Shown here in pieces: positions 493 to 61,434 of a DNA stretch of 64,000 nucleotides (its first letter is position 1; every line of letters begins with the position of its first letter). This stretch comes from Minutocellus sp. GHC0000111. Its lineage: Eukaryota. The position numbers were made by a program, and so were the translations under genes. The stretch covers positions 7,068,001-7,132,000 of the forward strand of contig OZ361256.1 of the NCBI GenBank assembly GCA_977018835.1, read 5' to 3'. A model generated the notes under the pieces. It searched no databases. It had not been told where the DNA came from and saw only the letters and a list, made by a program, of their open reading frames with translations.

Positions 493-924
493 CGCTTCTT
501 CTGCTACGATCTACGTTCGAGACGAACTAAAAATGAGCACATGGTCTGGAGCGATCTCACTGGGCTGACTCACTCGCAGAGCAAAACGAGTCAGGCGGGC
601 ACTCGAAAGGATTTGAAAGTGACGTGATGATGACGTATTAGAAACACGACCACACCAGACCAAAAATCCAAGCTCACGGCCAAGATGGAAGTCGGGGCAA
701 GAACCAAGCCATGGTCACCAACTTCTACATATAGTCGAGAGATATTGTGCACCAGAACCAATAAATGTACATTATGTGATGATTTTTTTCGACATTTGCA
801 TTCCTCACCCCGGGAAAAAATACATTTTTGGAAGCACCAAATCAAAATGTAATGAACAGAAATGGACATGCTGCTGTGATAAGTTGTAGCAAATCAATGA
901 CTCCATCGTCTTCATCATTTTCAT

Positions 925-3730
925 CTATGTCGTCCTCAATGTCATCATCTTCGCCGGGAGCATCAATTGGCCAGAGTGGTTCACCATCCTCTTCAGCTTC
1001 TTCCTCGGCAATTTTTGCGAGAGACCAGCCTTTCCCCGTCTGGTCTCCACAAGATTGTTGCCACCGCCACGACTTCTCTTGATGTTGTTATGTGTCACTG
1101 GAAGTTTTCCAAATACATTGAGAAAGGCCTCTTTTGATGCGACATTGGCCCATGCTTTCATCACAGTCTTGTCAAGAGCATTCGCATCATTCTTCTGACC
1201 GCGATGCTCCTTTTCGACGGCCGACTGCAAAGACATCCAGATGCCGAGATCAAGAACATTTGTCTCGGGCGACCGAGGAACCTGCTGGATTATCTCAATC
1301 TTATGTTTGTTTTTGAGGTCCTCGGTGTGCTTCTCAACTGCTTCATTGGACCCATGACCGCCGGCATTGTCCATCACAAGACATGTAACATCAGACTCCT
1401 GAACATTTTGTGGATCCCACTTCACCCAATGATGTGCGTCTCGAATCGCCTTCCCGACCTCATTCATGGTCTCTAACATCCATTTGGAGTCGCAGCTACA
1501 GTCCTTGGTAACCTTATCGCCCCGTTGATACCGCACCCCGAGCTCAAGGTCGTCGATCTCAACCTTCACCTTCTCTCCATTGCCATCAGGAGTGTGTCGC
1601 TTGAGACTCGAGATCTTTTGATTGCAGCCAACAGCGCGGCATGCTTGCGACATTTTGCCTGACCGTCGGATTTATAGTCCTCGCATTGAAGTTCCAATCG
1701 CTCTGTAACAAACTCAGAAAGGCCGTAGATTTCGGCAACGTGGTCGCAAAGATGGCCGGCGGTCATGTCAGCATTCTCGTCGTAAATGTCGCGCCAATCT
1801 TTGTCATTTTTTAGCGCATCGGAGCATCTGGAGAGAAATTCTGATTACGCGTAAGCTTTTCCACCTTCTGCTCCCTGGCGACTCTCTTGATCATGATGCG
1901 CCCATTGAAATCAACGTCTTTGGTTTCATCCTTCATTGGTCGGCCAACAACTCCAAGATGCATAACTTTGACAGGGTGTCTTCTGGAGATCGAATTTTCG
2001 GGCTTGCCTCGGAAGCATGGACAGACACGAGGTAGTTCTTCGTCAGAGAGTGGCAACATCTTGATCTTTCGTCGCCGAGCAGCAGTGTAAAACCACTTTT
2101 CATCAAGACACGCTACAGGAATGTTGGGATCGGTCGTAATGTCCTCCCACTTTTCGATCCAATCAAGTCGCTTCCTGCAATGTTCGGGGGTGAGCCTCGG
2201 CTTCTCGATCGACGACTTCTCCTTGCCGCCTTGCTTTTTCCACCAGCGAAAAAGCTGAAGACGATGGAGACTGCTAATTGTCAGCCTGTCTTCATCTGGA
2301 GTAGCTGATTTTGCGCTCATGCAGTCAGCTAGCTCCTTAAAGGTTGCCATCGCACCCTTCATCCGAGCAGCATGCCGACACAGCTCGCGGAGACATCCTG
2401 GCTCCTTCTCCTCGATCATGTCCGTGTGTGCCTTCCTTCCACGAACCTCCTTTCTGCCGATGGGATTGCTGATGCCATCAGTAAGGCTTTTGTAGAGCTG
2501 GTCTCTCCACTTGTAAAGCTGAGAACCACCGGTTGACTTGGCATGGCCGTGATCGTGCGCAACTTGCTTGCCGACACGCGGCAGTTGCAATTTGTTGCCG
2601 GTCTTCATGCGTGCGAGTTGGGTCGCCGCATCCCCACCAATCCGCGAGAGCCACGGCGCTGAACCGCATTCTTTCATTCGCCTGCTTTTCTTTTCTGATT
2701 GGTGTTGGTTCGGTGACGGTTGCATTGGGACGAGGAGGACGGAGCATGTCATCGTTGGCCATCCGAACAACAAAGTCGAGGCCGAGAGCGACCTTTGCCT
2801 GTTCATCAATGTCACTGGAGGTGGCACAGACAACGGAAGTGTCGGCTCCTCCTAAACCTTCATCATTGGGGGAGGCTGCAGCTGCTTCAGTGGCGGAAGC
2901 ATCACCAGTTCCCTTCAGCATGCTGAGGAGACTTGCTGGCATCCAACCCAGTTTCTTGGCCTCGTCGACTAGTGATTTTGCTCTTGCTTCGCAATGCGCT
3001 GACTGCACCTCCTTTCTGTGAGCTGACAACCTCTCACCTAGCTTAGCAGCTACTAAGACAGTCGAGCGCCCAGAGAACAGAACTTCATCGGGATTTCTTT
3101 TCTCGTGCACCTTCTGTCCCTCCGGTCCAGAGAATTTCGGGTGGTTGTCCTCCTTCTTTTTACGCAACCTGTGAGCACAAACACAAAGCGCCCTGCGTCT
3201 TGTCTTCCCTCTCGGCCGACACGTCGACAAGTGCAACAACTTCAAACTGCAATGCTCCTTGAGATGTTGCTGCACATCCTTCCATTTTTCCTCGTTGTAC
3301 TGTAGCTCATACTTTCCTCCACCGACGGACTTGGAACGCAACAAGTCGGCCTCGATGAAAGCAGCAGGGAGGACGTCTTCCCATTTCTGCCGAGAACCAA
3401 CACAAATGTCATCTTTGCCGCAGCAGGAATCGGGGGTTACTCTCCACCACAGATCCTTACCAGCCCTTCGAATGACATCTGCTGCAAGGAGAAAGGCCAT
3501 GGGGATAGGAGGAGGGGCCGTCCTCTTCTTCGCCGACGACGGTGACGGTTTGGCGGGCGAATTTGACCGTGGCCGCTTCTTCGACGTGTGTTTGCGCTCG
3601 GCGATGGTGTTTTCGGCTCAGCTGCCGCCTTCCTGGATGCCTTGGTGTTGCCTCTCTTGCTCCCTGAGAACGAAGTTCTGCTGCGTTTGTATTTTTTGGG
3701 CGTGGTCTGGTTGGTCGTCGTCATCGTCAC
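925..3730 (-). mobile_element. Decayed Tc1/mariner DNA transposon, DD39D type, frameshifted transposase
   Basis: Fragments 2478-3500, 1811-2833, 925-1653 carry KPRLT, LDEKWFY, MDNAGGHG...PRSPETNVLDLG; 39 residues counted between 2nd and 3rd Asp; termini not identified. Confidence 0.88.
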
Positions 3731-9133: not shown

Positions 9134-9350
9134 AGTCGAGAACATGGTTACTACGAGCAGTTTAGAGGATTTAGAAGTGGACCTGAACGGCATACATGTT
9201 CTACGTAGACGTTTATAGGATCGACATAATCAGAAGATGAGAAGCGAAGAAAGTAGGATAAGCAAAGCCAGCCGCAAATAATTACTCATAGTGCCGTTCA
9301 GGTCCACTTCTAAATCCTCTAAACTGCTCGTAGTAACCATATTCTCGACT
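9134..9350. repeat. 59-bp inverted repeat (arms 9134-9192 and 9292-9350)
   Basis: agtcgagaa(c/t)atggttactacgagcag...cctgaacggca present on both strands, one mismatch. Confidence 0.9.
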
Positions 9351-28505: not shown

Positions 28506-29440
28506 GGACGCTTCTCGGCCAGAAGCAAGCGGCCAGCACTCAGCAACTCACCTCTCAGACCAATGCAGCGAACTCTGTGCTACCAGACCTGCTCGCCCAA
28601 CCGGAGTAACACCACCGGCGGGGTAGCCGTCAAGTGGCATGGATTTCGGAGGTGGGCCATCTCAAGCTTACTGCGATCGCCAAAGGGATCTAGTAAGGAG
28701 GTGGAGTGAGAAATCGAATATCACATTATAATCGAAATTCGATTCAAGACTTCGAGGGCAAGCAGAAGCTGCTCAGCGCCTCGACTCTTGGCAACCACAT
28801 GCATGTGCAAGTGCATGCTAAAGTCCCGTAGATCGATCTATAGACGTAGATCAGACTTGTCTACGATTGCTAACGGTGTGTTAGAACCTCCAAGTCGACA
28901 GAGCAAACACTACAGAAGTGAAGAAAGACAAGCAGAGGTGTAGAGCGGGTTATGGGAACCACAATAGAGAAAATCAGCCGGGGTTTTCGTCCGTCTGCCG
29001 TACGTAAGTAGACACGTCAGTGGCAATGGCTCGAATGGCTCATCTTGTGAAGCATCGTTGCAACGGCATCCTCTGAGGACCGTTAGCTAAGTCATAGGGC
29101 TAGTTAGCCAAGTACAATTGCATATGTCGATAGATCTATCAGCTCCGACTGACAGCATTGCGCCGCCGGCGAAGTTTCTGTAGTTCATCAGCCCATGGTC
29201 TCTCTACCAGAGCATGGAATGCAATGATGTGATGGAAACGAGCAATTATGGGTGAGATGCAAACGACATCCGTCTGGGACGGCCATTCCTGACACACATG
29301 CTCCACCGCAATGTGTTGAGCTGCCAACAGCTCTTCGGCACGTCAGCATCACTCATGTGATCCGATCGACACCAGGGGGGCGATCAACTCCTCCCTCTCA
29401 CTCATGTCGCAGCAGTGTCCACTTGCCCGAGCGCCGATCA

Positions 29441-29932
29441 ACATCAGCTCGCACTCGTTTGATAGCAGTGGTCCTTCCTGCCTGCTTTGCCGAGCGCACG
29501 CCCTGCGGCGCACTCCAACTCGGCCTCGAGCCCACGCCCTGCGGCGCAGTCAAACTCGCAGAGTTGCGCCACCAAAGCGCATCACAAACTCGCGAGGAGT
29601 AGATTTACGTGCTCCCCAGCACGGTGATCGACATGGCCTATCTCCCGCCCTGTAGCGGTCGGTCGGAGTTCCATTGCGGCATCTCAACGACACGGTAATG
29701 CGGTGCATCAAAGTGCCAATAAAAGACATCGGAACGAACACACAAAAGATGCGCAAAAGATGTGCTCACACAAGATGCGATGGGTCGGATGAACTAATTC
29801 GAATCAGCCGGGACCAACCAGTGACGTACCAGTCGACATGCACCAGCCAAAGCAAGATGTAATCCGTTCCAACACATCCAATCACCGGCACAAAGCAAAG
29901 ATATCGCACTACTCTCTCTAATTCGATAACTA
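29441..29932. repeat. Direct repeat copy 1 (about 0.49 kb), LTR-like; may extend left to about 29125
   Basis: Near-identical to 34300-34792 (two short indels, five substitutions). Confidence 0.95.
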
Positions 29933-29935
29933 ATC

Positions 29936-32900
29936 TGTTGATACCGTGGGATACGTACGTACGTATACATACGTACGGTACGTACGGTGATCAGACCACT
30001 GACTCAGTGCCCTCTCCTGACCGTTGATCCATGGGCCAACGACATCTCCGATGGCCCATTTTTCATCTACGTAGGTCCTATTAACCTCTACTAGCTATAT
30101 CTATCTAGCTTAGCTTTAGGACCTCTTAGCAGACCTATGTGACACATCTTTTCCACCCGTGCTCGCCCCATTTCGGTTCGCACCTCACCGGTTTGTCTTG
30201 GTTGGGTTCTCACTCGTCACGCAAGAAAAACCGACACATCTTCAATCGGCCAAAACTACCGTTTCTTTCGACAATATTGGAACGACGATCCAATCCCTTC
30301 CCCGAAAGTCCTGACCAGATCGACCCATCCAATCGATCACACTTCTCTGGATCGAACCTTCTGTCGATCACACGTCTCGCAGCAACACCGCCGTGCTGCC
30401 TGTCTTCGCTGACTGAAACACCAGCATGAATCCCGACGCAGTTTTTGGCCAACCTCTCGGCGCAGCGCCGATTCTCCCCACCAAGTTAATCACACGTGTG
30501 AATGACCCAGGACAACCTCCCCAACGCGAGCGTGTTGCCAAAGCGCTCAAGGAACTTCAACAAGCGGCGGTCAGCATTCCAGCAGGGGGTGCAACATGTG
30601 ACCACAACCTCGGCCATTTGGGCCTCGTCGTCAGCGATGCCGAATGCACCACCAAAAGCAACGGCCGACCACATGTGCCTCCGGCAAATCCTGGCCCCAG
30701 CCCCACCATTCCCGCCGTGGCCAATCTAGACCAACGCGATCGTGCAATCCGGGGACATCACATCGAAAAGGGCCACTGCAACTTGTGCGAGCAAGTCAAC
30801 ACGGCGCTCAAGAGTCTCCTCGACTCGATCGACGCCGTCTACATCAATCATCTCGAAGATGACATGCTCGGTTTCCAGCCAGTCACCATCCGCCAAATCA
30901 TCGACAGCGTTACCGATCGCTACTTGAAATTCAACGAGACTCAGAAGGAGGAGTTAGAGAAGCAGCTCGAGAAGCAGCACGACGGGGGACCCATCGACAC
31001 CCATATCGCCACATTCAACAAAGTCTTCAAGGCGTTTGAAACGGCCGGCGAACCCTTCACCAACAAGCAAAAGGTCTCCAAGTTCTGCCGCTCCGTGCGC
31101 AGGTTCTCATTGGCAAAGAAGGCATGCGAGGACTGGGACGACAGACCGGAGGCCGAACGCACGTGGGCCAACGTGCAGTCGGACTTCCGCGATTGGCATG
31201 ACAAGAAGATGGCCAACACCACCACCGAAGCGGCAGGATGTCATGGCGCGAATTTGGCCTCATCGGCCTCGGACGATCCATTTCTTTCTCGAGCCGATCT
31301 CCTTTTGGCTGATGCCACCGAAGCCCTCAAGACCAACCAAGCCATGATGGCGAACCTCGCCAAAAAGAGCAACGAGAAGGACGACACCATTGCCAAACTT
31401 CGCCAAGAAACAGCTTCACTCAAGGCCGAGAACCGCGTTCTGCGTGAGGGACGCAACCACACTGGTGGCAGTGGAGGCTACCGCGGCGGTGGCCAGCAGA
31501 ACGGCGCCGGCCACTTCCCAGGCCAAGGTCCTAACCTCAACCGCCAGGAGAAGAGGGAACTGCAGTCGATCCTCCCCAGAGGCCATTGTTGCCACACGTG
31601 CGGCTATTCGTCCAACCACCCCAGCTTTGAATGCACTTGCAAAGGGCCCAACCACGTTGATGACGCCACCAAGCACAATCCTTGCGGTGGCAGCTCGCGT
31701 CGTAACTGAGCGGGAGGGACGGTGGATGTTAATCAGCACAAAATAGAGGACAGCATGTCTGAATCCACCTCCTCCCCGCCTTCGTTAGCTTTCTTACGTC
31801 AAAAAGCAAACCTCCAACTCAAGAGCCAATCGTCCTCGCAGCAGATGCTGGAACGACGGGACATTTTGTCCAGAAGCCCCAACACCTGTCGTGCGATGGC
31901 CCTGTTTTCAACGTCCAACAGACAGCAATTCCTATCAGCGTCACCCTTCCGGACAATGGCACAATGACGAACACCCACGAGGCCACGCTTCGCCTCCCTG
32001 GGGTTTCCCCATCGGCTAGCAAGGCCTGTGTTTTCAATGACATGGCATCATCGCTCCTATCGATTGGGCAGCTGTGTGACGATGGATGCATTGCCACTTT
32101 CGACAAGGATTCGGTAGTCATCGCCAAGGACAATGCCGTCATTTTGCAAGGTAAACGAGACCCCTCAACGAAATTGTGGATGGCAGATCTTAATTGCTCG
32201 CCCACCATGTCGCCGCTCCCCGGCCCCAACGTCATCCAACATGCTGCCAACGCCGCAATTGCCCAGGAGACGGTTCCGGAACGTGTAGCCTTTTTGCATT
32301 GGTGCGCTGGCAGTCCTCAGCTATCTACCTGGTGCAAAGCAATCGATGCGGGATTTTATAGATCTTGGCCAGGCCTCACATCAAAGCTTGTACGTAAGCA
32401 CATGCCACAGTCGACACCGATGATTAAAGGTCACTTAGACCAGCAGCGCAAGAACATCAGGTCGACCAAGCCCAAACGGTCGATGGCTACGCCAAAATCT
32501 CTCCCTGGGGTGGACGAAACCGAGCAGGATCTCCACCCGGCACAACACCAACAGCGCACCAACTGTGTCTTTGCTGATTGTCATGACATAACGGGCCAGA
32601 TCTTCTCAGATCAGCCCGGCCGTTTCTTGGCATCGTCTATTTCTGGCCACCAGTGCACAATGGTCGTCTGTGACTGTGACTCCAACAGCATCTTGGCCGA
32701 ACCAATGAAAAGCCGATCGGGAACGGAAATGCGCCGAGCGTGCCAAACTATTTTCGAACACCTCTCCAAGCGAGGATTTCGCCCAAAATTGCAACGATTG
32801 GATGATGAAGTGAGTCGAGAGCTGAAGGAGTTCATGGAAGAAAAGGATGTAGATTTTCAATTGACCCCAACGCACTCCCACCGCCGAAATGCGGCCGAAC

Positions 32901-34299
32901 GAGCCATTCGAACCTTTAAGAATCATTTCATTGCGATTCTCTGTGGTGCCGATCCAGACTTTCCCCTCATCTTGTGGGACAAATTGCTGGAGCAGGCGGT
33001 AGTGACCCTCAATTTCCTGAGAGCGTCCCGAGTCAACCCTCGACTTTCAGCGCACGAGCAACTCAATGGCGGCTTTGATTTCAATCGCACGCCTCTGGGC
33101 CCCCTCGGATGCAAGGTCATCTTTCACGAGATGCCCTCGGCACGCGGCTCTTGGTCCCCGCATGGCGTTGATGGGCACTGTGTCGGTCCAGCCATGGAGC
33201 ACTGCCGGTGTTACAAGGTTTGGATTGAGGAAACTCGGGCGGAACGCACTGGTAACACACTCGTCTGGCTCCCCAAAATGATTCCGGTGCCCAAAACGTC
33301 GTCGGCCGATGCAGCAACAGTCGCAGCTCATGAACTCCTGCACGCTCTACAGAATCCACATCCAGCGGCACCCCTTGCTCCCCTTCGAGACGAGCATCGT
33401 CAAGCTTTAGAAAAGCTCTCCGAGATTTTCAACAGCGTGACCCCAGCAGAATCTGCCACCTCCGCCTCTGATGAGACGATGCAGACAACCGCAGCTCCGA
33501 GGGTGCTGGAGAACGATGACGACTCCCAACGATTCCGCCTCGGTGCCATCGTCGCCAAAGTGTTTGGAGATCGCAATTGCAAGGGAAGAGTCGTTGCATT
33601 TGACAAGAAGCATGAGTGCTGCAAAATCAAACACGAGGACGACGACGTAGAAGAGATGAACGAGACTGAAGCAGGCCGTCACCTTGTCTCCAACCCCAAC
33701 GCTCCGTTACCTCAGCCCCAGCAACCTCCGAGGGTGGCAAAATCCTCCACACATGATGCAGCCACCACTAAAAGCCGTGGATCACGTCGATCCAACGCGC
33801 CACCTCGCTCGTCAGTTTCTTCCAACTGCTGCAATCCTTTGGCTGCAGCAGACGAGCCCAACGGCGACGATGATGATAATCATGACGACGATGCAACCGT
33901 CGTAACATCCAATCAAAGTTCCAATGCCCCCACCTCCCGTCGGCAACGTAAACGCAAGTCTCCAACGATCGACACCACTCCAACATTGCCAGCTCCAGCA
34001 AAATCGACAAGCAAGTCCAAACCATCGACCGCCAAACCACCTCGACGACGATCATGCCGTCAGCGAGGGCACATTCCACATCGGAACCCTCCCCCACGGC
34101 CATCATCTCGTCGTAGTGCCCACCACGTGGCCAACATGGCAGCTTTCTCGCCTTTACCAAACCTCCAACACTTTGCTAACGCCGTCGTCCATCCCGACAC
34201 TGGTGCAATGCTTGAATGCCGCGACCTCCTCAAAACGAACATGAGGGACCAATTCATTCAAGCAAACATCGATGAAATTGGACGGCTAACAGACGGCCG
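29936..34299 (+). mobile_element. Ty1/copia (CoDi-like) LTR retrotransposon, truncated before RT
   Basis: TGTTGATACC LTR-like start; gag 30426-31709 (GHLGLV, C-terminal C..C...H....C); protease ADAGTTGHF about 31841; integrase SDQPGRF, RLDDE, HRRNAAERAIRTFKNH; ends at ANAVVHPDTG..EIGRL; no RT/RNase H. Confidence 0.92.
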
Positions 34300-34792
34300 A
34301 CATCAGCTCGCACTCGTTTGATAGCAGTGGTCCTTCCTGCCTGCTTTGCCGAGCGCACGCCCTGCGGCGCACTCCAACTCGGCCTCGAGCCCACGCCCTG
34401 CGGCGCAGTCAAACTCGGCATTTATTACTCGCAGAGTTGCGCCACCAAAGCGCATCACAAACTCGCGAGGAGTAGATTTACGTGCTCCCCAGCACGGTGA
34501 TCGACATGGCCTATCTCCCGCCCTGTAGCGGTCGGTCGGAGTTCCATTGCGGCATCTCAACGACACGGTGATGCGGTGCATCAAAGTGCCAATAAAAGAC
34601 ATCGGAACGAACACAAAAGATGTGCTCACACAAGATGCGATGGGTCGGATGAACTAATTCGAATCAGCCGGGACCAACCAGTGACGTACCAGTCGACATG
34701 CACCAGCCAAAGCAAGATGTAATCCGTTCCAACACATCCAATCACCGGCACAAAGCAAAGATGTCGTGCTGCTCTCTCTAATTCGATAACTA
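34300..34792. repeat. Direct repeat copy 2
   Basis: Matches 29441-29932. Confidence 0.95.
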
Positions 34793-36231
34793 TTAACGAG
34801 ACTTCGGGAAGATTCCTGACGGACGTGACAAGACAGCATTCTCGGAGGAGCAACTGGAGCCTCATACAGATTCTCTGCTGGGGTACTTTCAATTACTCGG
34901 GGAACAAAGACATTGTTGGGGTTGGTGGCATCAGCAGGAGCTGCTTTAGCCGTCATCGCAGCGGTAGTCTTGGTCTTTTTCCTCACGATATGTTCCTCCC
35001 TATCCTCCTTTTCAGCACGACTGTCATTGTATGCTGATAGACTGCCACTGCTGCGCTTGCCCTGCAGCTTCTTCGCTGCCTCTCTCTGCTCTCTTCTCTT
35101 CTCTCTCAACTCTTGCTTCAGTATCATCTTCCTCATCTCGCATGAAGTTATGGCATACGACACCATCTGCGTCTTGGCGACGGGGGCCTCCACATCGTTG
35201 TTCTCATCTTGATCATCATAAGACATAGCCTGAATAATCATGGTCCGGGCAGTTTCGAAGGATTCAGTGCCAAGGTCCATGGCAAGCTGGGCTGATTCCT
35301 TGCCAAGCTCGAGGGCGGCGTGGGCGCCCTTCTTGGCGATCGGTGCCGCTACTTTGGCAGATTCCTTGCCAAGCTCGAGGGCGGCGTGGGCGCCCTTCTT
35401 GGCGATCGGTGCCGCTACTTTGGCAGATTCCTTGCCAAGCTCGAGGGCGGCGTGGGCGCCCTTCTTGGCGATCGGTGCCGCTACTTTGGCAGATTCCTTG
35501 CCAAGCTCGAGGGCGGCGTGGGCGCCCTTCTTGGCGATCGGCACGGAAAATGCTACGGCCTTCTCACTTGCTTTGTAGGTGGCGTGGGCGCCCTTCTTGG
35601 CAAGGGGGACAGCTACTTTGGCCGATTCCTTTCCAAGTTCAATTGCGACATGTGCGCCTTTTTCGCCGGCCTTCATAGCGACTTGCGCGCCCTTCTTGGC
35701 GATAGGGACGGAAAACGCCACAGCCTTTTCGGTGGCCTTGATGGTGACATCCTTGGTCTTTTGGACGGGTTCGCTCTGGGCCAGAGGGATGAAGACATTG
35801 TCGTTCGCGGCCGTTATCGGCATCATGGCAGCATCCGCCACGCATTTGGCTGCCGGAGCAACTGCCTTCTTGGTCTTTTTGACGGTATCGAAGCTGCCGA
35901 TGTGATTGGCGACGGGTCGGACGAAATTGGTGTTGCCAGCCCGCATGACATTTTCCTTGTCGAGTGCATTCTCGAAACGGTGAGCGGCAGCACCAACGTG
36001 GTCGGACGCAACCTTGAGGACGGCCCGGGTCTTCTGAATCCCGGTATCGGCATTTTTGGCGACGCCACCGAATTTTTGTGTCGATGGGGCCATGTAGACA
36101 TTGGCGCTGGCCGACGAGAGGCCACAAGGCATCGGCTTCGTGTCGGTATAGGCCGAGGCAGATGAGCGACGTGCCTTGTGCGGCCGGATGTTGGACTTCT
36201 TGGCGGTCGGTACCTCGTGGAGCAGCGTCAT
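34654..36231 (-). CDS. Ala/Lys-rich protein with 22-aa tandem repeats; C-terminus runs into the direct repeat
   Basis: Likely ATG 36231 (MTLLHEV); repeats KESAKVAAPIAKKGAHAALELG; last ~46 codons lie within 34654-34792. Confidence 0.7.
   Translation of the reverse strand: MTLLHEVPTAKKSNIRPHKARRSSASAYTDTKPMPCGLSSASANVYMAPSTQKFGGVAKNADTGIQKTRAVLKVASDHVGAAAHRFENALDKENVMRAGNTNFVRPVANHIGSFDTVKKTKKAVAPAAKCVADAAMMPITAANDNVFIPLAQSEPVQKTKDVTIKATEKAVAFSVPIAKKGAQVAMKAGEKGAHVAIELGKESAKVAVPLAKKGAHATYKASEKAVAFSVPIAKKGAHAALELGKESAKVAAPIAKKGAHAALELGKESAKVAAPIAKKGAHAALELGKESAKVAAPIAKKGAHAALELGKESAQLAMDLGTESFETARTMIIQAMSYDDQDENNDVEAPVAKTQMVSYAITSCEMRKMILKQELREKRREQREAAKKLQGKRSSGSLSAYNDSRAEKEDREEHIVRKKTKTTAAMTAKAAPADATNPNNVFVPRVIESTPAENLYEAPVAPPRMLSCHVRQESSRSLVNSYRIRESSTTSLLCAGDWMCWNGLHLALAGACRLVRHWLVPADSN
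35294..35541. repeat. 66-bp coding tandem repeat, about 3.8 near-perfect copies plus degenerate copies to about 35730
   Basis: gattccttgccaagctcgagggcggcgtggg... recurs at 35294, 35360, 35426, 35492. Confidence 0.95.
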
Positions 36232-42274: not shown

Positions 42275-42815
42275 AAGCTTCTAGCTAGGCACTGATGATT
42301 TTGTAGTAAATGTGTAATGTTGTTGAATGAGAATGAAATGCCGAGGTGACTGATGAGACCGACCTTGCCAAGCAAACAAACAAAAGAAGCTGTCAAAAAA
42401 CAAACAGTCAACTGGCTTTTAAAATGTATTTAGGTATCCTATAGGATTCCTACCGTCCCTACATAACATATTCTTGTAGAGGAAATCCCACGCTCGGGCG
42501 ATTTTAAGTAGAATCAGAATTCATGAATCGAATCAGTTTTTGCAACCGGAAATCGCGCAAAAGCTTCGCTTCAATCAGGATTGATTGTGCTTCCGGATTC
42601 CGGCGTTCCGGCCATACACCCCGTAACCAACGTAAAGGAACTTCCACCAAACCGTGCCGCTCACGATCACATGCAAGAAGATTTTGAGGCAAAGCGCCCA
42701 CAAGAGAAGACGAGAAAGAATAATAACACGGAATCGAATCAATCAAAAGCAATAACCCTTTCACCTTGACCGCCCGGGTGGTTCAGTTTGCACCGAGAGA
42801 GACGTGTGGGACCGA

Positions 42816-45800
42816 ATGGAGGAGGACACCGGTGGCCGGCACGAGCCCCCCGGGGACACCGGTGCCGATGCCGATGCCGCAGAGGTGAACGTCGGCAGAT
42901 CGGGGCCACCGGGCGGAACCGAAGCCGCCACCGCCAGAGGTTTCGGTGCGGGAGGAGGTGGAAGTGGAGGGGGTGGGTCTGGACGTACTCGTGGAGCGCC
43001 TACGGATGATGACCGGCCTCCTCCGCAGGACGCCCCGGCTGGAGAGATCGGTAGAGTGGACGGTGGCGGTCATCCACGATCAGCGCCGCCGCATGATCTG
43101 CCAACCGACGCGGACGGAGGCGGCGGCGGCAAGATTCAGTCCGTCTTGAATGCCGCCGCGGTAGTGGACTTCAACGAGGAATCGCCGGAGCATCGGCAAC
43201 GGGCTGTGTCTGGTCCTGACGACGCGGCGGGAGGTGTCGCTGGCGCCGATGAGGGTCGACTGGGGGCGGAACTAAGTACCGGCAGCAACAACCATGTGGC
43301 TGCTGTAGATCGGCCACGGGACGCCCAACCCCCATCGGTTCACGATTACAGTGTGACCGATGATAGGCCTACTTCATCAACGGCCTCAGCATCCGAGCCA
43401 GCGTTGCGTGCCAAGAAATCACCCAGACCAAATCCCAGCGACGTTGGTCCTACGGAGGGTGATTACTACAACTACGAGGATGAAGAGGGCGAGGAGGACG
43501 AGATGGAGCATCAGCAGCAGCACGACACGGACGACGACAACGAAGTACAGATTGTCAATACGAACGCTGCCTGTGATTGTGACAAACGCAAGACTAGGAA
43601 GGGAAAGAAGAAGAAGAGTGGTGCAACAAGTGGCGGTGGTGCTACTCGTAATAGTGGTAGTGGTGCCACCGGCTCCATCCGATCCACCCGCAGATCCGAT
43701 CTAAATAATCGTCTACAGCAGGTAGGGGTCGGATCAAGAGTTGGTATCTTTTGGCCGCTGGACAATTTGCACTATCCCGCCACGATCATTGCGACGCACG
43801 GGCGATGGCCCTATACATATACCTTCCTATATGATGATGGGGAGCAAGAATCTTTCGATTTGAGCAAGCATCAACAGTTCCAGATCCTCCACGATGAAGT
43901 GCCCAAGGCCGCCCTTGATGCCATTGCTACCGCTAGCCTTCGCGAAGGTGGCGATCAGAATGGCGGTGACAATTCTCCCATCGCCGCTCAACGTACAAGA
44001 AGAAGGACAACAAGAGCAAGTGGTGAAGATGATACCGCCGAGGTTGAAGAGCAGGGGAAAGACTGGGTCTGCCCCACGTGCAAGAAGACCAATCCGTACC
44101 AGAAGAAGCTTTGTCAGTGCCCGTCGACACGCAAGAAGGGAAATGGAAAGATAAAGAAGCTGTGTGCGATTCCTGATTGTTCGAAACAGTCGCAAGGACC
44201 AACATCTAATTCAATGTGTCAGCGCCACTTTTCCCTCTCTAACGATCGAAGGGATGGGGACGGAGATGCTGGTGTCCCCGCTGCAGAAAAGGAGTCGTCA
44301 AAGAAGAGAGCTCAGAAGGCCCCTGATCGCTTCGATGGGCAGGAAATCAGCAAGTCCGCCAGTTTTGACGGCGGTGATCACAAGTCCGAAGCCGAGAAGT
44401 CCAAACGATCCAAATCTGCCTTTCGAAGCAACAATAAGAACGAGCTCTCTGTTGACGAGATCTCGAATTTGAGGTCGCGGCAGCCCAAGAAGAAGTCTTC
44501 CAGTACGAGGGCGAGTATTAGTCGAGGTGCGCGAGAAGACGAAAGTAGCGGGACTGATAGCGACACTGAGAAAAAAGAATATGATGAAGCTTGGATTTGT
44601 CTTGGTTGTGGTACTGAAAATGCTCCAGAAAGGAAGAGGTGCTCTCCGCCGTGTGGGAGATGGAGAGGCGGTAGCAGAAATGTAGCGACAAGCCCCGCAA
44701 AGAAGAAGGATCCTTACGCCGGCCTGAAGCGACGAGATTCACCACGTAATCCATCAAAGAATCAGTGTGGTAAATGTGATGCTTGTATGGTCGACGACTG
44801 TGGCGAATGCAGGCATTGCCTTGATATGAAGAAGTTTGGCGGTCCATGGAAAATCCGGGAAAAATGCATGAATCGCCCACCCTGCAAAAATCCTCCCTCC
44901 ATGTCCTCTGTCAAGAAGTCAAAGTCGAGGGCACCGGTATCTCCCTTTGAGCGTACTTCGAGAGCTGGTCGTCCCCCAAGGGCCAAGCCGGTTCCTCTCG
45001 CTCCGCCAGCTGGAAGTATTGCGTTGGATCCATTGAAGCTGGCAGATGCTGTTGATGTCCCGAGGTCCACTGAGAGCTGCGACTGGTCCTTTGATGAAAA
45101 CTCTCGCGTACTTCTCGCCAAGTTCAATCTCGGGAGTAGTTCCAGTATCGATCCTGTGCACAAGGAAACACTCCTCAAAATGATGGAGAGGGATGATATT
45201 ACCGTTGTAAGCGAGGGGCTAGTCGGCGACCTGAATCGAACGCTCTGGGATATGCATTATGTCTCAAATCTGGTCGGCGACAAGCCCTATCACAAGGTCC
45301 GTCGCTTCGAACGCGAGCTGGTAGAATTATCCTCCGATAAGCCAGAGAGCGAAAAGGATCAGGCCGAGGAAAAGATTGCGGGCGGCGACAGTACTGATTC
45401 CGCTGCAGCAGCGGCGACGCCAGCAGAATCCGTTCAAGTCGAAGATGCTGCCAAATCAAGGGGGGCTTCAGCGTCTGCGGCAGAGGAATCGTCATCAGTG
45501 GACCCAAGACAGCAGTTCCATGTCCGGCATAAGGAGGTGGACAAGAATCTGTCTATGAAGATATCGGATTATTGCAAATACCTGGACAAGCGTTCCACTG
45601 CGCTGCAATCTATTGCTGAAAAGAGATCGAAGAAAGGAGTCGATCTAGTGAATCCAGCTTCCAGGGAAGATTATCTCATCGGCCGTCCGACCGATGTGGA
45701 AGGGCAGAACTCAGAATCCTTTACCTTTCTTACCCATGATGGCAAGGAGGAGACCATCAACGTCGTCGACGAAGTCCTGTACTTGATCGACTATGATATG

Positions 45801-48800
45801 GTGAAGTTGCTGCCCCCACTGTACGAGGACTTTGTGAATAAATTCAAGCTCCCCGATTGCCTACCCGGAGGTCAGCATTGCATGATGAATGCAGTCAACG
45901 TCAACGGTAGACCTTTCATGGGGCCAAATTTCTGTGAGTACTACTACGTTCTAATGTCACTTTCGTTGCACTAAATATGTATGAACTTTATCGGGTATGT
46001 TGTGCTGCCCTGAAATGCCTAATCGTCTCTAATCTATCGTTTCTTCTTGCCATTTACTGTTCCTTGATCGGTAGACGTAACTCCACCAGGTTAGTATTGA
46101 GATCATCAAATTACTTTGCTGGGAATTTGCTTTATTACTTTGCAGTTGTCGTTTCGCCCCCGCTAACTAATGCCCACTTCATTTTCTGTACCTACATCCA
46201 TTCATCTACAGCCTCGTTCACCCACTTCCATCAAGATGGCCATGGTACGGTGGACAGTGGCCACCAGTGTCTTTCTGGTTACAACGAAGTCGTCATGCTC
46301 CGACGAATGCCCGAGGAACACAAGCAGCGAGCTCTGTACATCCTCAACGATCAGGCCAAGAAGAAGAAACGATCCAAGTACGACGGTCTGTACGGTTTGC
46401 CCCATGGTGATGGCCTCGGTGCTAAGCCAGATTGGCCAACTACAGACGCTATCGAGGAGTGCCGAAGAATGAACTACTGCCCATCGGTATTCGTCCTCAA
46501 GCCCGGTCAGTTTGTTCACATCAACAAAGGTCGACTCCATGCCTTTCGAAAGTTGTCGCCGACGGCCCTCCCACCCAATGACTGTCATAGACAGCTACGT
46601 CTCGATACTATTGCGAGCGATAACCTTGGTTCCATGGAACGTCTTTGCGTCTCTGTTGCTTGGGATTGGATGGTAAGTTCTGTCTTTTTTATTGTTTGTA
46701 GGTGCATTTCATCTTGTTCTCGCTCGCCTTGGATCGTACTTGGATGGAACACAAACTCTCGATGGGAATTTCTAATCTGTTGTTTGTTCTCTCGTTGCAC
46801 TCTGTTCTTATTTTAAACAGTACAAGGGATGTACCGAGAAAGGCATCAGTGAAGAGATATTCTCCACCCTCCACTGTGCTCGTCTACTTCGTGGTCATCA
46901 ATTGCAATCTCTTGCGATTCCCGAATTATCAGTTCTGCACACAGCGATCCAGCTTGTTGCTGAATATGAGCAGAACAATGCTTCTCCTGACACCAAACGC
47001 GGAATCTTGCCTTTCCTAGTAGACAGCAATGGATCTCAACCCGATTCCGAGGTGGTAAAAGAGAAGCTAAAGGGTATTGCGCCCGCAATGGAATACATTA
47101 TCGATCGGCATGAGCGTGCCTTCAAGACTGCGAAGCAGGAGCTTGAGCTCCAGGCGTCTGAGGAAGGTTGTCGAATCACCTTGGATATTGCTGGCCTGCC
47201 AGATGCATCGGAAAACCCCGAAAGTTATGCTTTGGACCCGTAAGTTTTGTGTGCCTTTTACAGCCTTTGGTTTGTCTGAGCTCTGCATAATCGAGGTGTA
47301 TTTTCACCTCTAATTTTCTTTTGTTTCCTCATTTATTCGCATTCATGTCTCTTTTCCCCTTCGTGTAGCTACGGGAATGGCGACTTCCATTGCCGCTTGT
47401 GCCACGAAGAGCTATCGAATATCTACATGCATTGCGATGGTTGCGAAAATATCCTCAACAAGGATTGCAACATCTGCGTCAGCTGCCACGGAGACGGCAA
47501 GTACAAAGAATATGCCCAGATGCATCCCACGAAGCCCACAAAAAACAGCAGCGTAAACCACATGGGCGAAAACCAGAGAGATGTTCGAGGTAACTTTTGC
47601 CCTTGCAAAAAGGGCAAAGCATGCGCTCGATGCGGCTACTGCTCGGGCTGTTCGTGCAAATGCCATCAATGTTTCACTATGCATATGCGCTTCTCCAGCA
47701 TGGATGAAATGATTGCCTTGAGAGAGCGCGTCCGCAATGTAGTCGGAACCTGTTCCATACCTGATATCCTTTTGGGTTCACCTGATGCTGCTGCGTCGAA
47801 GAAAGCGGTGTCGGATTCATTTTCAGCGCCGGCCCCGGCTGCGGCTTCCGCTCTACCTTCATTGAAGGAGCATGAGGTATCCACCATTGATCAGTCAAAC
47901 GTGCAAGTTATCTCTGGTGATCAGATATGGAGCAGAGAGAAGCGTGCCAAGAAGAGGAATCGCGATAGGCAATCATCCTCTAGCATCGACGAAGAGAAGA
48001 AGGAAGATTCAGTCTTTGGCGACGATACCTTCGATGCCTCAGAAGAAAAGGAACTGAATGTGCGAGGCCGACAGAAACGGAGCAAATCGGAATCGAGCGA
48101 GGAATCCTTGTATGATCCGGCCTCTGATGCCGCCGGTGTCCTCAAGGTAGATGAAGATGCAATGGAGCTGGGCGAGGGGATAAAGCCACGCAGGCTTCGA
48201 GCGATAAGAAAGCGCAGTCGCAAAGACGAAGATTTAGACATTGGCAACGACAAAGCAATTGCCGAAGTTGTGCAAGAGTCTGAGTATGCTGCTGGTCGCA
48301 ATAGAGTGGCCAAGTCTGCAAGGAAAGCTTCGGCAATGAAGCTGGAGGACGAAGATGAAAGCGATGGGCGGAAAATCATCGATGTTGAGGATGGAAACTC
48401 GGCGACGCTCCATCGTGCGATCGGCTCTCGGCACGCTGATGAGGAGACAGGTATGTCACCCTCACCACGCAAGAAAAAGAAGACAGCGCGGAGCAAGAAA
48501 GACAATATGGGAGATGCTAGTGACGGAGATTGGGTCTGTCATCTTTGCAGCACCTCGAATGATTCCGAAAGAAAGAGATGCACGGAATGCAGAGGGTGGA
48601 AAGGAGGCAAAAGACCTTTATACGCTGGTTCTCCGGAAGCCTCAATAAAGCGAGACAAGAAGCAATCTTCTATTTCTACTGGTAAGAAGAAGTCATCAGC
48701 TCCAAAGAAATCATCGCCATCACGCAAATCATCAAGCCCGAGCAAAAGCAAAAGCACGACGAGACACGACAAAGCAGAAAGATCTTGTTCTGTATTGCGG

Positions 48801-49985
48801 TGCAATGAATCCTCTGGTGGCCCCCGAAGGAACTATTTTTGCAAGAAACATTATGAGAATTCGCAGGTGATGGAATCAGAAAGAAGGAGCAAGCGGTTAT
48901 GTTCGGTTGCAGGCTGTCCGAGGGTCGATGATGGGGCAAGAAGCAATTTCATGTGTGTTTCTCACTTCAGGAAATCAAACAAGGAAACGGAAGACGCACT
49001 GAATGCTGACGAAAGTGGCGACGATGACAATGACGAGGATATCGACGAGGGACTAGAGGAAAATCAAAGCAACGTATCTGATGGCTCTCAAGATGAAGAA
49101 GATGCTAATCCGGATAGAGCCGAACCAATCGAGGATGGCCCTGAGAGCAAGGCAGTGGATGATGCAGCAAACATTGAAGAAGAAGACACCAAGCCAACTG
49201 CATCTTCTGAAACGTCCGATGCCGACGTTAGCGAGATACCGCAGGCATTACCCGAACATCAAGAAGTGGATCAGACTGCCGATGATAACGTTGACGAGGT
49301 TGAAATCCTCAGGAGCACTGCAGCAGCAGCTGCTGCTGCCCCCAATCATCTGGGTCGTCGTTCGAGCAGCCGTGCAAGCAGTCGAGCCAGCAGGAGTCGG
49401 GCTACCTCGGCTTCCAATATTCCTACCGGTGAGCCCAAAGACAAGGACGACCTGATCAAGAAGGGTGTTCAATCCTTCATTGCGCCGTATGCCAGCGGAA
49501 AAGTTCTCAGGAAATATTATCCGGCCCACAATGGCCTCACAGCCACCGTTGTGGGTCAACTTCTTGAGGACCACGAAGATTCTGACCCTTCTATTGGGAT
49601 GCTAATCAACGCCCTACCGAAAGAATGTGGCCTGGTGCGAGATGACCCGAATCATAGGAACCTGGCCCGCCATCTTTATCGCAACTTTCAAGGAGAAAAG
49701 GATCTCCTCAAGAGTAAGGATGGCGATACATTGCCGATGTCCGCGCGCGAGAGAGATATTTGTGTTTACGCTGTTGCACTCGAAAAACATTTCTCTTTCT
49801 TGCAGCACTTTATTCCTTACCGCTCAAGGGAGGATGTCGTCGCTATCTATCGCCTTGTATTCAACAAAGGCCTCGCCCACAACGAAGAACATACAGCTCA
49901 TGTCAAGCGTACTATCGGCTTGATTGAGCGCCTCGAGGGCCCTATTGGAATTGAAGAGGGTGTTCCTCAACAATTGAAAGTGTAA
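42816..49985 (+). CDS. Large chromatin protein: Tudor, RanBP2-type Zn fingers, CXXC, JmjC, Cys-rich domains; introns about 45934-46074, 46090-46211, 46673-46820, 47240-47368
   Basis: VGIFWPLD..YDDG (Tudor); CGKCDAC..DCGEC..C.DMKKFGG (CXXC); THFHQDG...GRLHAF (JmjC HxD..H); GT-AG junctions keep frame. Confidence 0.85.
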
Positions 49986-58992: not shown

Positions 58993-59838
58993 TGTTTATT
59001 TCAATGTCGCCAATCAAATCAATTTTCCTGCAAAGGTACAGTTATTCCGTGATGGTAGGTTCGGTGCCAGCAACAGAGAGCAATAGAATGCAAAGATATC
59101 GGCGGCTTCGGCTTCGGCTTTTCCAGTCACTGCTGATGGATGATGAGTTCTTCGCCGATCCTCAAGATACGCCACAAACGAGATTAATAGACGTGCGAGA
59201 AAACGCAGCAAATTGGACTGAACCGGCACCGCTACAAAGTTGAAGTCGAAGAATGCAAGCGATTGCCTCTCTCGTGGAGAAATTGGGAGAGCAATAACAA
59301 TCAGATGTGCTGCTGCTCTTGGCTCAAGCTCCAAAATAATGATTTGATGATAAATATGCCCTTCGCAAATTAAGAGGGCGCTGTCCATAACTTTTAGGAA
59401 GCCCCCAAAATGCGTGTTTTGTGCCGTTTTTTCTTCGCACCATCGCCAAAGTTAGCACTCCAACGTGACAATGGGCTCCTCATCGAAGGCCGCCGCTCTC
59501 CACAGTGGCGAAGAGTCATCGACGTTCCTTTCAGCATTAAGTCGGAAATCCCTCCAGGAACACTTGGTTCAGAGGAACTTCGATGAATCAACTCTCCCTC
59601 AGAAACATAGCAGTCGACGCACACGTCATCGTCGGATCGACCGAAATTAGTCTCGGCCGACGCATAACCAGCATTGGTGGTGCTGGTGGGAAGATATCTT
59701 GAAGTTTTGCTGTTGGGAGGTAAGGGGATATTTGTTTGGGGTATTTTTGCACGTCTCCCTCATTTGGGGTTCTTTTTGTAAGGTTCTCATCGAAAAGCGC
59801 ATCTTGCGCCAGAACCGACACAAAACAAAAAAAACAAC

Positions 59839-61434
59839 CATGGAAACGTCACGTGCTAACGCCAAGGAGGCAATCCTCTCACTCTTGCTCTCATTCCCAG
59901 ACGACGTCAGATGTACTTACTACACTATTGATGAGCTTGTCCGTATCTTGATGCGCGGTGGCGCATCGCCGAGCTTAGAGATCTCTCTTGTTCGATCATC
60001 TCTTCAACACGTCCCAACACGACACGAGGTCAACATCCAACGACGACGTCCAGAGAAAATGTCAGGCCTTGACGTTGCAAAGCCCTTCTACCGCTTCTCC
60101 AGAATAGCCGATAACGCCAGCCCACGCTCTCAACGCAATGGCAAGCGATCACTGCCGACCATGCCTGAAAATTGCTTCCAGGACGATGAAAAGCATGGGC
60201 CCCATCTCAACGCGACACTGAAATGTTGTTCCGACAAGAGTTCTTCGGGCGGTCGGTCATCTACTCCCACCGCCAACGCTACCGATCGTCCCAACATCAC
60301 CGGCGTGCAGCTCAACGGCAAAAGAATTGTGGTTGAGATGAAGCAGCTGCATGATTTTGTACAGAATCTCCACCGATCGTGCGGCAATCTGCATCTCTCG
60401 GCCGAGCCAGTTCGGCGTGGATTCGGCGTTACATTTGAATGGCGATGCGATAGATGCAACCAACCTTTTTCTTTTTGCACTTGGATCGGCCAGAGGTCAG
60501 AAGTTGTGTGCCCCGGCAGAAAGCATTCTAGAAGTCAGGCTGGAATGAACTTGGAGCTGATGGAGGCAGCGGAAGATGAGGCCATGTGCGCAAGTCGCTT
60601 CATGAATTTCTGCACGAAGGCCGACATCGTCCATCCGACCGAAAAGAATGCCTTGGAGTGATGGCAAGCTCGATGAGGAATGGAGCTCGGGGAATCAATT
60701 CGATGGCGACATATTGGAGATTAGTGACGACACGATTCGCAAGATGACGCTTGAAATAACCAAGAGAATCAACAAGAATACTGCCGACTCCAACTGCAAG
60801 AAGGAATCTACCACCGGCGTCGAACAGCTCAACGGGATGGTGACGAAAGTTCACGATGGGGAAAAGGCCGAATTTGACTGCTTCAGACGCCTACCCAAAT
60901 GCAACAAGTAGAGCCGCTGGCCACAAGTCACTGGGTACGGAATTCAATGAGCGAGTTCTTGGAAAGTTGGGATCGAGGGATTCTCCTACCCGAAAAGATG
61001 GATTCGATGCAATTGACCGGAAGCTCGAGGGCGACCTTGCGCGTAAGCGCACCGATGAGTACAAAAAGAGCAAGAGCGACAGCAAGCGCCTTCGAGCAGC
61101 CTTGCGAAACAGAAGCGAGAAAGACGACAAGGACTATGTGTACAAGAAGAACAGGGCCCTAGCTGCTGGTAAGGCGAAACCAGCAAAGCCTGGCCGCAAG
61201 AAGAAGATTGACCAGCAGTGTCAGAAATGCAAGCAGCTTGGCCACACTCGGGCTGAATGTCAATGCGACGATGCTGACGACGTTGTCGTTTACGCCGGAA
61301 AGAAGCGCAGAAGCCCAGGCAGCAACAAGAAATCTGCAAGAAATAATAAGAAAGCTAAGACAAACTTCGGTGTATCGGCAAATGATGTTAGCTCTTGGAT
61401 GCCGGCGATACTGAGAGAAAATGGCAGCTTGTAA
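59839..61434 (+). pseudogene. Kolobok transposase remnant
   Basis: GFGVTFEWRCDRC N-region, STTGVEQLNGMVTK..GKR (catalytic-E-like), C-terminal CQKCKQLGHTRAEC knuckle; three frames, first two catalytic Asp motifs not visible. Confidence 0.7.

Follow-up and report, generated by a model that had tools for sequence, protein, structure and literature searches.

TpA-specific hypermutation of a copia retrotransposon family in the diatom Minutocellus

The truncated copia element and its flanks

The window analysed here is a 64-kb stretch of the genome of Minutocellus sp. GHC0000111 (contig OZ361256.1, positions 7,068,001 to 7,132,000), and every contrast drawn between host genes and transposons covers this window only. 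Its forward strand carries a copia retrotransposon in which most conserved tyrosine (Tyr) residues have been replaced by cysteine (Cys) or histidine (His). The element opens with a 5′ long terminal repeat (LTR) of 196 bp and TG...CA termini (29936..30131), the ends of which are set by loose contig ends at 29935/29936 and 30131. This is followed by a leader and primer-binding region (30132..30425), a gag open reading frame (ORF) of 427 amino acids (30426..31709), and a pol frame (31763..34299) with a protease region, an integrase and a Tudor-like domain, PF21743. The pol frame is truncated at 34299, where the reverse transcriptase (RT) begins, although it stays open to 34321 in flanking DNA, and no 3′ LTR of this element is present.

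Like the Copia of diatoms (CoDi) elements, the element has gag followed by a protease-integrase-RT pol, with the integrase before a copia-type RT, a TG...CA LTR and a diatom host; unlike them, the window copy is truncated and hypermutated. The integrase is 58% identical to Phaeodactylum tricornutum proteins. A Pfam scan returned no integrase or gag match for the window pol and gag, and the intact relative P0135 matches RVT_2 at E 2.5e-5, below the Pfam cut-off. A search of viral contigs returned no relatives of the element. The PF21743 domain follows the integrase at 33540-33670 (pol residues 594-636), is lacking in more distant aligned relatives, and might direct insertion towards marked chromatin, a role that chromodomains play in certain gypsy elements.

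The insert is bracketed by a direct duplication of 492 bp, with copies on the forward strand at 29441..29932 and 34300..34792. The left copy lies within a low-copy repeat whose depth in run X2 exceeds that of the unique flank. The first base of one contig in run X1 falls precisely on 34300, which weakly supports that junction as real. Such a duplication around a truncated element with one LTR may reflect aberrant integration, a repair product or mis-joined alleles. Upstream of and within the duplicated flank, positions 29190-29600 are poor in TA (three in 400 bp), and this stretch is probably an older mutated repeat that received the copia insertion.

Tyrosine loss and the spectrum of change

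The initial annotation had pointed to five motifs reading Cys or His in place of Tyr; all five belong to pol, and Tyr occupies each of these sites in intact relatives. Aligned with P0135 (1399 amino acids, 57 Tyr), the window pol keeps only one of 27 Tyr, the others being replaced by 16 Cys, 9 His and one other residue. In gag, 4 of 15 Tyr columns are kept and the remainder read Cys (6) or His (5), with one column having weak outgroup support; all four surviving Tyr codons are preceded by C. Distant relatives do not share these Cys and His residues; across P0002-P0120, Tyr stands in 2167 of the 2274 conserved cells, and Cys or His in 25. In other records, some distant relatives of the copia and DDE elements (P0115; P0367, P0395, P0408 and P0411) show several Cys or His residues at conserved Tyr columns, hinting that the same process may act in other hosts.

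At the nucleotide level, the count by eye of about ten TpA in the gag ORF was close, as there are 11 in 1284 bp. The interval 30426..34299 contains 51 TA against 188 expected (observed/expected, O/E, 0.27), and the lowest 3874-bp sliding window of the 64 kb falls within it (O/E 0.27 against a median of 0.59). TpA is low across the whole window, with host ORFs at O/E 0.53, and the bulk depletion in the element is only about 2-fold. The contrast is far sharper for RTAY (R, purine; Y, pyrimidine), with O/E 0.06 in the copia element and 0.11 in a second transposon described below, against 0.77 in 18 host ORFs. Host genes are thus spared, as had been proposed, when judged by RTAY; Tyr content alone fails to separate the classes, as 3 of the 18 host ORFs fall below 1% Tyr.

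Comparison across the family gives the same picture. The pol set comprised 18 copies including that of the window, taken from the closest cluster of 113 members and polarised by two intact relatives, while the gag set comprised 33 copies plus the window copy from a cluster of at least 71 members. The 15 listed members of the pol cluster all lie on contigs of 0.6-3.3 Mb, and the family exceeds 100 copies. Tyr was changed in 181 of 408 pol cells (105 Cys, 74 His and 2 Asn), and no other residue was changed in more than 7% of cells. After Tyr, the changes seen most often were Thr>Ala (27), Val>Ala (27) and Ile>Val (18), all of types that TA>TG/CA yields within or across codons, and altogether 281 of 351 changed pol cells are amino-acid types reachable by a single TA>TG/CA change. 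Among gag copies, Tyr was changed in 159 of 290 cells, and the near-complete patterns all differ from one another (9/9). Pol copies vary in mutation load between 15% and 96% (chi-square p 1e-10), with the window copy the heaviest; copy age could explain this spread. The same spectrum appears in a DNA comparison with L001, a related locus of 76% identity. There, 16 of 104 TA are kept in the window, 36 read CA and 29 TG, such that TA is kept in 15% of cases and the other 15 dinucleotides in 48-73%. The initial expectation of a TA excess in the polarised spectrum is therefore borne out.

Public sequencing runs likewise show the family to be variable at these sites. TA/TG/CA interchanges account for 31 of 40 listed differences (of 138), with TG and CA alternatives found at the same site; this count leaves out position 30138, a CpG-type change, and excludes runs with a share below 0.2 (X17-X24). 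Two other studies (X6, X9) also have derived His and Cys alleles, at 30645-46 and 30759-60, in their Illumina RNA-Seq contigs, and a long-read artefact is therefore unlikely. More generally, a sequencing or assembly artefact, compositional drift or selection against TpA could draw on the low TpA of all coding DNA here and on the fact that the libraries behind the window and runs X1 and X2 are not on record. Against these stand the mutual differences among copies, the adjacent LTR that keeps all its TA, and the loss of conserved Tyr, which selection would oppose, and we regard this group of explanations as barely credible. Decay of 5-methylcytosine (5mC) was also considered as the origin of the TG/CA pairs and rejected, as outgroups carry Tyr or Ile (TA) at these sites and not Arg. 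The best 80 of 276 metagenome loci retain the conserved Tyr without exception, at TA O/E of 0.44-0.92, although short-read metagenome assemblies collapse copies to the majority and so say nothing on a mutator in those hosts. Two of these copia loci, L005 and L016, have CpG O/E of 0.20 and 0.24 with Tyr kept, a methylation-decay regime unlike that of the window. Taken as a mutational process, TA-specific hypermutation of mobile DNA is close to certain.

The immediate sequence context further defines this process. After a purine, Tyr codons were changed in 124 of 158 cells in gag and in 81 of 144 in pol; after a pyrimidine, the corresponding counts were 58 of 182 and 20 of 118 (p 4e-18 for gag, 4e-11 for pol). 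Per-strand hazards for RTAY, YTAY and RTAR stand at 0.41 : 0.12 : 0.065 in pol and 0.77 : 0.32 : 0.066 in gag, and relative to L001 no RTAY is kept (0/40) against 16 of 64 other TA (p 2e-4). At RTAY the strands are struck equally, with Cys/His counts of 43/38 in pol (p 0.66) and 58/66 in gag (p 0.53), whereas at YTAY the TAY-reading strand takes most of the changes (gag, 48 Cys against 10 His). The 5′ T is strict, as Tyr>Arg (0), His>Arg (0/310), Asn>Ser (4/372) and Lys>Arg (1/431) are zero or nearly so in the pol copies.

This strictness bears on one of the mechanisms first suggested, an error-prone polymerase of the Pol eta type, with its WA motif, filling repair gaps in transposon chromatin. 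A>G at TA is a favoured error of Pol eta, and short repair patches could account for changes made one site at a time on either strand. However, its WA mutagenesis strikes AA as well as TA and produces transversions. Here, A after A is barely changed, as the Asn>Ser and Lys>Arg counts show, AA is kept in 62% of cases between L001 and the window, like other dinucleotides, and transversions make up 2 of 181 Tyr changes. The suggestion was accordingly dropped as a leading explanation, and we consider it quite improbable.

Mutation in place, LTR sparing and targeting

The duplicated flank shows that the change occurs in place, after duplication, because the substitutions between its two copies are exclusively TA versus TG/CA. 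Between the copies there are two indels and 5 substitutions, and 5/5 substitutions are of this kind (p ~1e-6 if the null allows transitions only). Compared with the inferred common state, the right copy carries four TA>TG and the left one TA>CA, and at one site one copy has CA where the other has TG. This spectrum would stand even if the copies were mis-joined alleles. Processivity was considered from three adjacent TA>TG in the right copy; the pattern is partly due to RTAY context, and no claim is made for it.

DNA transposons in the window extend the observation beyond retroelements. A broken DDE-type element lies on the reverse strand at 900..3650 (approximate ends); its DDE_3 match is below the Pfam cut-off, its TA and RTAY O/E are 0.29 and 0.11, and Cys or His occupy 9 of 11 Tyr columns. 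A Mutator-like transposase relic on the forward strand (59651..60661), also below the Pfam cut-off, has a TA O/E of 0.37, a value that suggests the same signature. At 9134-9350, an element resembling a miniature inverted-repeat transposable element has 59-bp inverted arms whose sole mismatch is TA versus CA within ATAT, an RTAY; the region is otherwise rich in TA. Together, spectrum, strand symmetry and flank copies uphold the initial proposal of a double-stranded A:T>G:C mutator acting in place at TpA and confined to mobile DNA.

These data also argue against A-to-I editing of element RNA followed by fixation through reverse transcription. ADAR-type editors favour U before A (bioRxiv 10.64898/2026.01.13.699255), and contigs of element RNA exist. 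Nevertheless, editing with reverse transcription is excluded as the main route because the changes are strand-symmetric and a DNA transposon and the duplicated flank are mutated as well; we hold it to be very improbable.

The LTR stands apart from the rest of the element. Its 23 TA, 11 of them RTAY, are all intact in this heaviest-mutated copy, and the retention of 11 of 11 RTAY has p 5e-8 to 1e-4 at the coding-region rates of the family. By contrast, the first RTAY beyond the LTR, in the leader at 30143 and 12 bases out, has become CA, the window reading C against T in all contig depth of four runs. In public runs, only five TA sites of the LTR show minor variants, and single contigs of runs X5 and X8 match 146 and 175 LTR bases without difference at near the whole depth. 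At the gag rate, TA would not stay the majority allele in the LTR.

Sparing of the LTR weighs on how the process finds its targets. Targeting in which homologous repeats pair with each other, as they do in fungal repeat-induced point mutation (RIP), would, whatever the chemistry, agree with the fact that each mutated region of the window is a transposon or a duplication and with the high copy number of the family. Yet the LTR, at ~2.5x the leader depth, is the most repeated part of the element and the least mutated, and the duplicated flank has taken only 5 changes at ~16 TA per copy. RIP-like homology targeting is disfavoured because this TA-rich LTR is spared. Moreover, a single-copy insert of nucleocytoplasmic large DNA virus (NCLDV) origin is hypermutated in the alga Bigelowiella natans, as reported in a preprint (bioRxiv 10.64898/2026.01.13.699255). 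The description of the mutator as repeat-directed, in the RIP sense, is consequently not supported, and pairing is judged unlikely. Within a host ORF at 35224-35673, a near-perfect 66-bp tandem repeat keeps its single TA per unit in a non-RTAY context, a slight indication that being repeated is not in itself enough to draw the mutator.

From the LTR sparing, the single-copy target in B. natans and the CG methylation and H3K9/H3K27 marks borne by Phaeodactylum copia elements (PMC9998398), we infer that targeting would follow chromatin state and not sequence pairing. Apart from the transposons, the window includes a large multi-exon host gene (42756-49985) with a CXXC zinc finger (Pfam) and, by eye, a JmjC-looking stretch without a Pfam match; it is a candidate chromatin reader. 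Other host ORFs match Suv3, Fpg, TAF7, SprT, Brix, ATG9 and kinase families (Pfam) and are eukaryotic. Named relatives of the Brix/Ssf1 protein are centric diatoms, the nearest being that of Extubocellulus spinifer (88% identity), and the host of the hypermutated transposons is a centric diatom.

Candidate chemistry and relation to known systems

The favoured explanation, to which we assign a probability of roughly 0.55, is that a host adenine deaminase of the TadA/ADAT fold converts the A of 5′-TAY to inosine in silenced transposon chromatin. The strands would be struck separately, one site at a time and over many rounds, and unrepaired inosine would pair with C at replication and so fix A>G. 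Targeting by chromatin state would let the promoter-like LTR escape. The outcome would be a cumulative inactivation without new stop codons. All Tyr codons start with TA, and TA>TG/CA never turns a sense codon into a stop; frames therefore stay open while Tyr is lost. From this effect, the loss of conserved residues in frames that remain open, we also infer that the process is a defence. A deaminase fits the pure transitions and the strict need for a 5′ T, and adenine base editors derived from TadA work best at TAY (PMC10879117). As the initial annotation proposed, such an enzyme is still the best candidate, although none was found among the 29 window ORFs scanned against Pfam.

That absence is one of several points that weigh against the deaminase. 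Deaminases acting on single-stranded DNA often leave same-strand runs, and none were detected at four distances (89 of 183 neighbouring pairs concordant, null 94-95), nor in lightly mutated copies (23 of 53, null 26). The copies were drawn from protein clusters, in which long ORFs are over-represented, and the window copy supplied the flank context for all of them. Contig assemblies lose rare variants, and family-wide sparing of the LTR is shown for common alleles only. Contigs of element RNA exist, in which DNA carry-over is possible. The base editors also edit CAT, GAC and GAT (PMC10879117), the mutator being stricter, and the natural, DNA-active ADAT2 of amphioxus has GAA as its preferred context and at TCG deaminates C as well (PMC10354150). 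Finally, the sequence cannot separate chemistry on A from chemistry on the paired T.

The main rival to a deaminase is inseparable from it by sequence. It holds that a writer enzyme leaves a modified base at TpA in transposons that miscodes to A:T>G:C, either on A (e.g., N6-methylation then deamination) or on T (e.g., TET/JBP-type oxidation). To our knowledge no such TpA mark is known. RTAY, the motif changed fastest, is palindromic, which is common among symmetric DNA marks, and the lack of same-strand runs and the nearly pure transitions (179/181) suit a writer as well. A writer would also parallel RIP, which needs a methyltransferase-like protein, and diatoms have the RID-like DNMT4 (PMC9998398). 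On the other hand, the bias of YTAY towards its TAY-reading strand implies that the palindrome is not needed. Furthermore, the same survey places DNMT4 only in diatoms (PMC9998398), while B. natans shows the signature. The writer thus appears rather unlikely, if less so than the other rivals, and deamination of adenine remains the explanation we prefer.

The closest known system is that described by Mettrop et al. in B. natans, where integrated NCLDV and virophage DNA undergoes TpA>TpG/CpA hypermutation (bioRxiv 10.64898/2026.01.13.699255). According to this preprint, the same change arises de novo in mutation-accumulation lines, in only some lines and at a ~1000-fold raised rate; RT and DDE Pfam families are enriched among low-TpA genes, and ADAT2/3 is proposed but unproven. 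Its main text describes no wider motif and makes no mention of a diatom, a stramenopile or an LTR. The diatom process is classed with that of B. natans because the four tested features agree, namely change that is almost only A:T>G:C (179/181 Tyr changes, 5/5 in the flank), restriction to TpA, action on both strands, and mobile or foreign DNA as the target. The systems differ in host (a rhizarian there, a stramenopile diatom here) and in target, which here is an LTR retrotransposon family and a DNA transposon. The (R)TAY preference, LTR sparing and absence of strand runs were measured in the diatom, where the evidence is historical, whereas a rate was measured in B. natans (bioRxiv 10.64898/2026.01.13.699255). 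Both the signature and the ADAT hypothesis were therefore already in this 2026 preprint, and the categorical novelty first attached to the process does not hold. Literature searches, made without subscription journals, found no published report of TpA hypermutation in diatoms.

Two further systems invite comparison. RIP in Neurospora and other ascomycetes is a homology-dependent, premeiotic process that changes C>T and creates TpA and stop codons. The diatom process resembles it in its dinucleotide-specific transitions on both strands, which accumulate in chromosomal transposon copies and inactivate them. It differs in its opposite chemistry, in sparing the most repeated segment and in the lack of same-strand runs. 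As initially proposed, the direction is the reverse of RIP and of 5mC decay: TA is lost, where C:G>T:A transitions would create it, and CpG O/E in the element is 0.99. RIP itself is linked to RID (PMC9998398). TadA-derived editors and DNA-active ADAT2/3 share A>G change in DNA (PMC10879117, PMC10354150), although the editors are engineered and looser in context (PMC10879117).

With these observations, a mutational defence that we found reported only once, from a rhizarian alga, is extended to diatoms, and its targets to retrotransposons and DNA transposons of the ordinary kind. The window contributes a 50-copy family data set, per-strand rates, a strand-run test and a sharp LTR edge. The resulting fingerprint, (R)TAY on both strands without runs and with the LTR spared, can be used for testing candidate enzymes, and diatoms have working gene knock-outs. 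Hypermutated copies, whose long open frames read Cys/His for Tyr, may be wrongly annotated as genes or overlooked by profiles, and clocks based on LTRs or divergence may misdate them. It is possible, if tentative, that diatoms and chlorarachniophytes share an ancient defence across the stramenopiles, alveolates and Rhizaria (SAR), in the form of a natural, chromatin-guided DNA adenine deaminase, strictly specific for 5′-TAY, that acts on silenced chromosomal DNA and uses no guide nuclease. If so, this enzyme would be the adenine counterpart of RIP and APOBEC and a natural adenine base editor, representing new biochemistry that would be useful for base editing.

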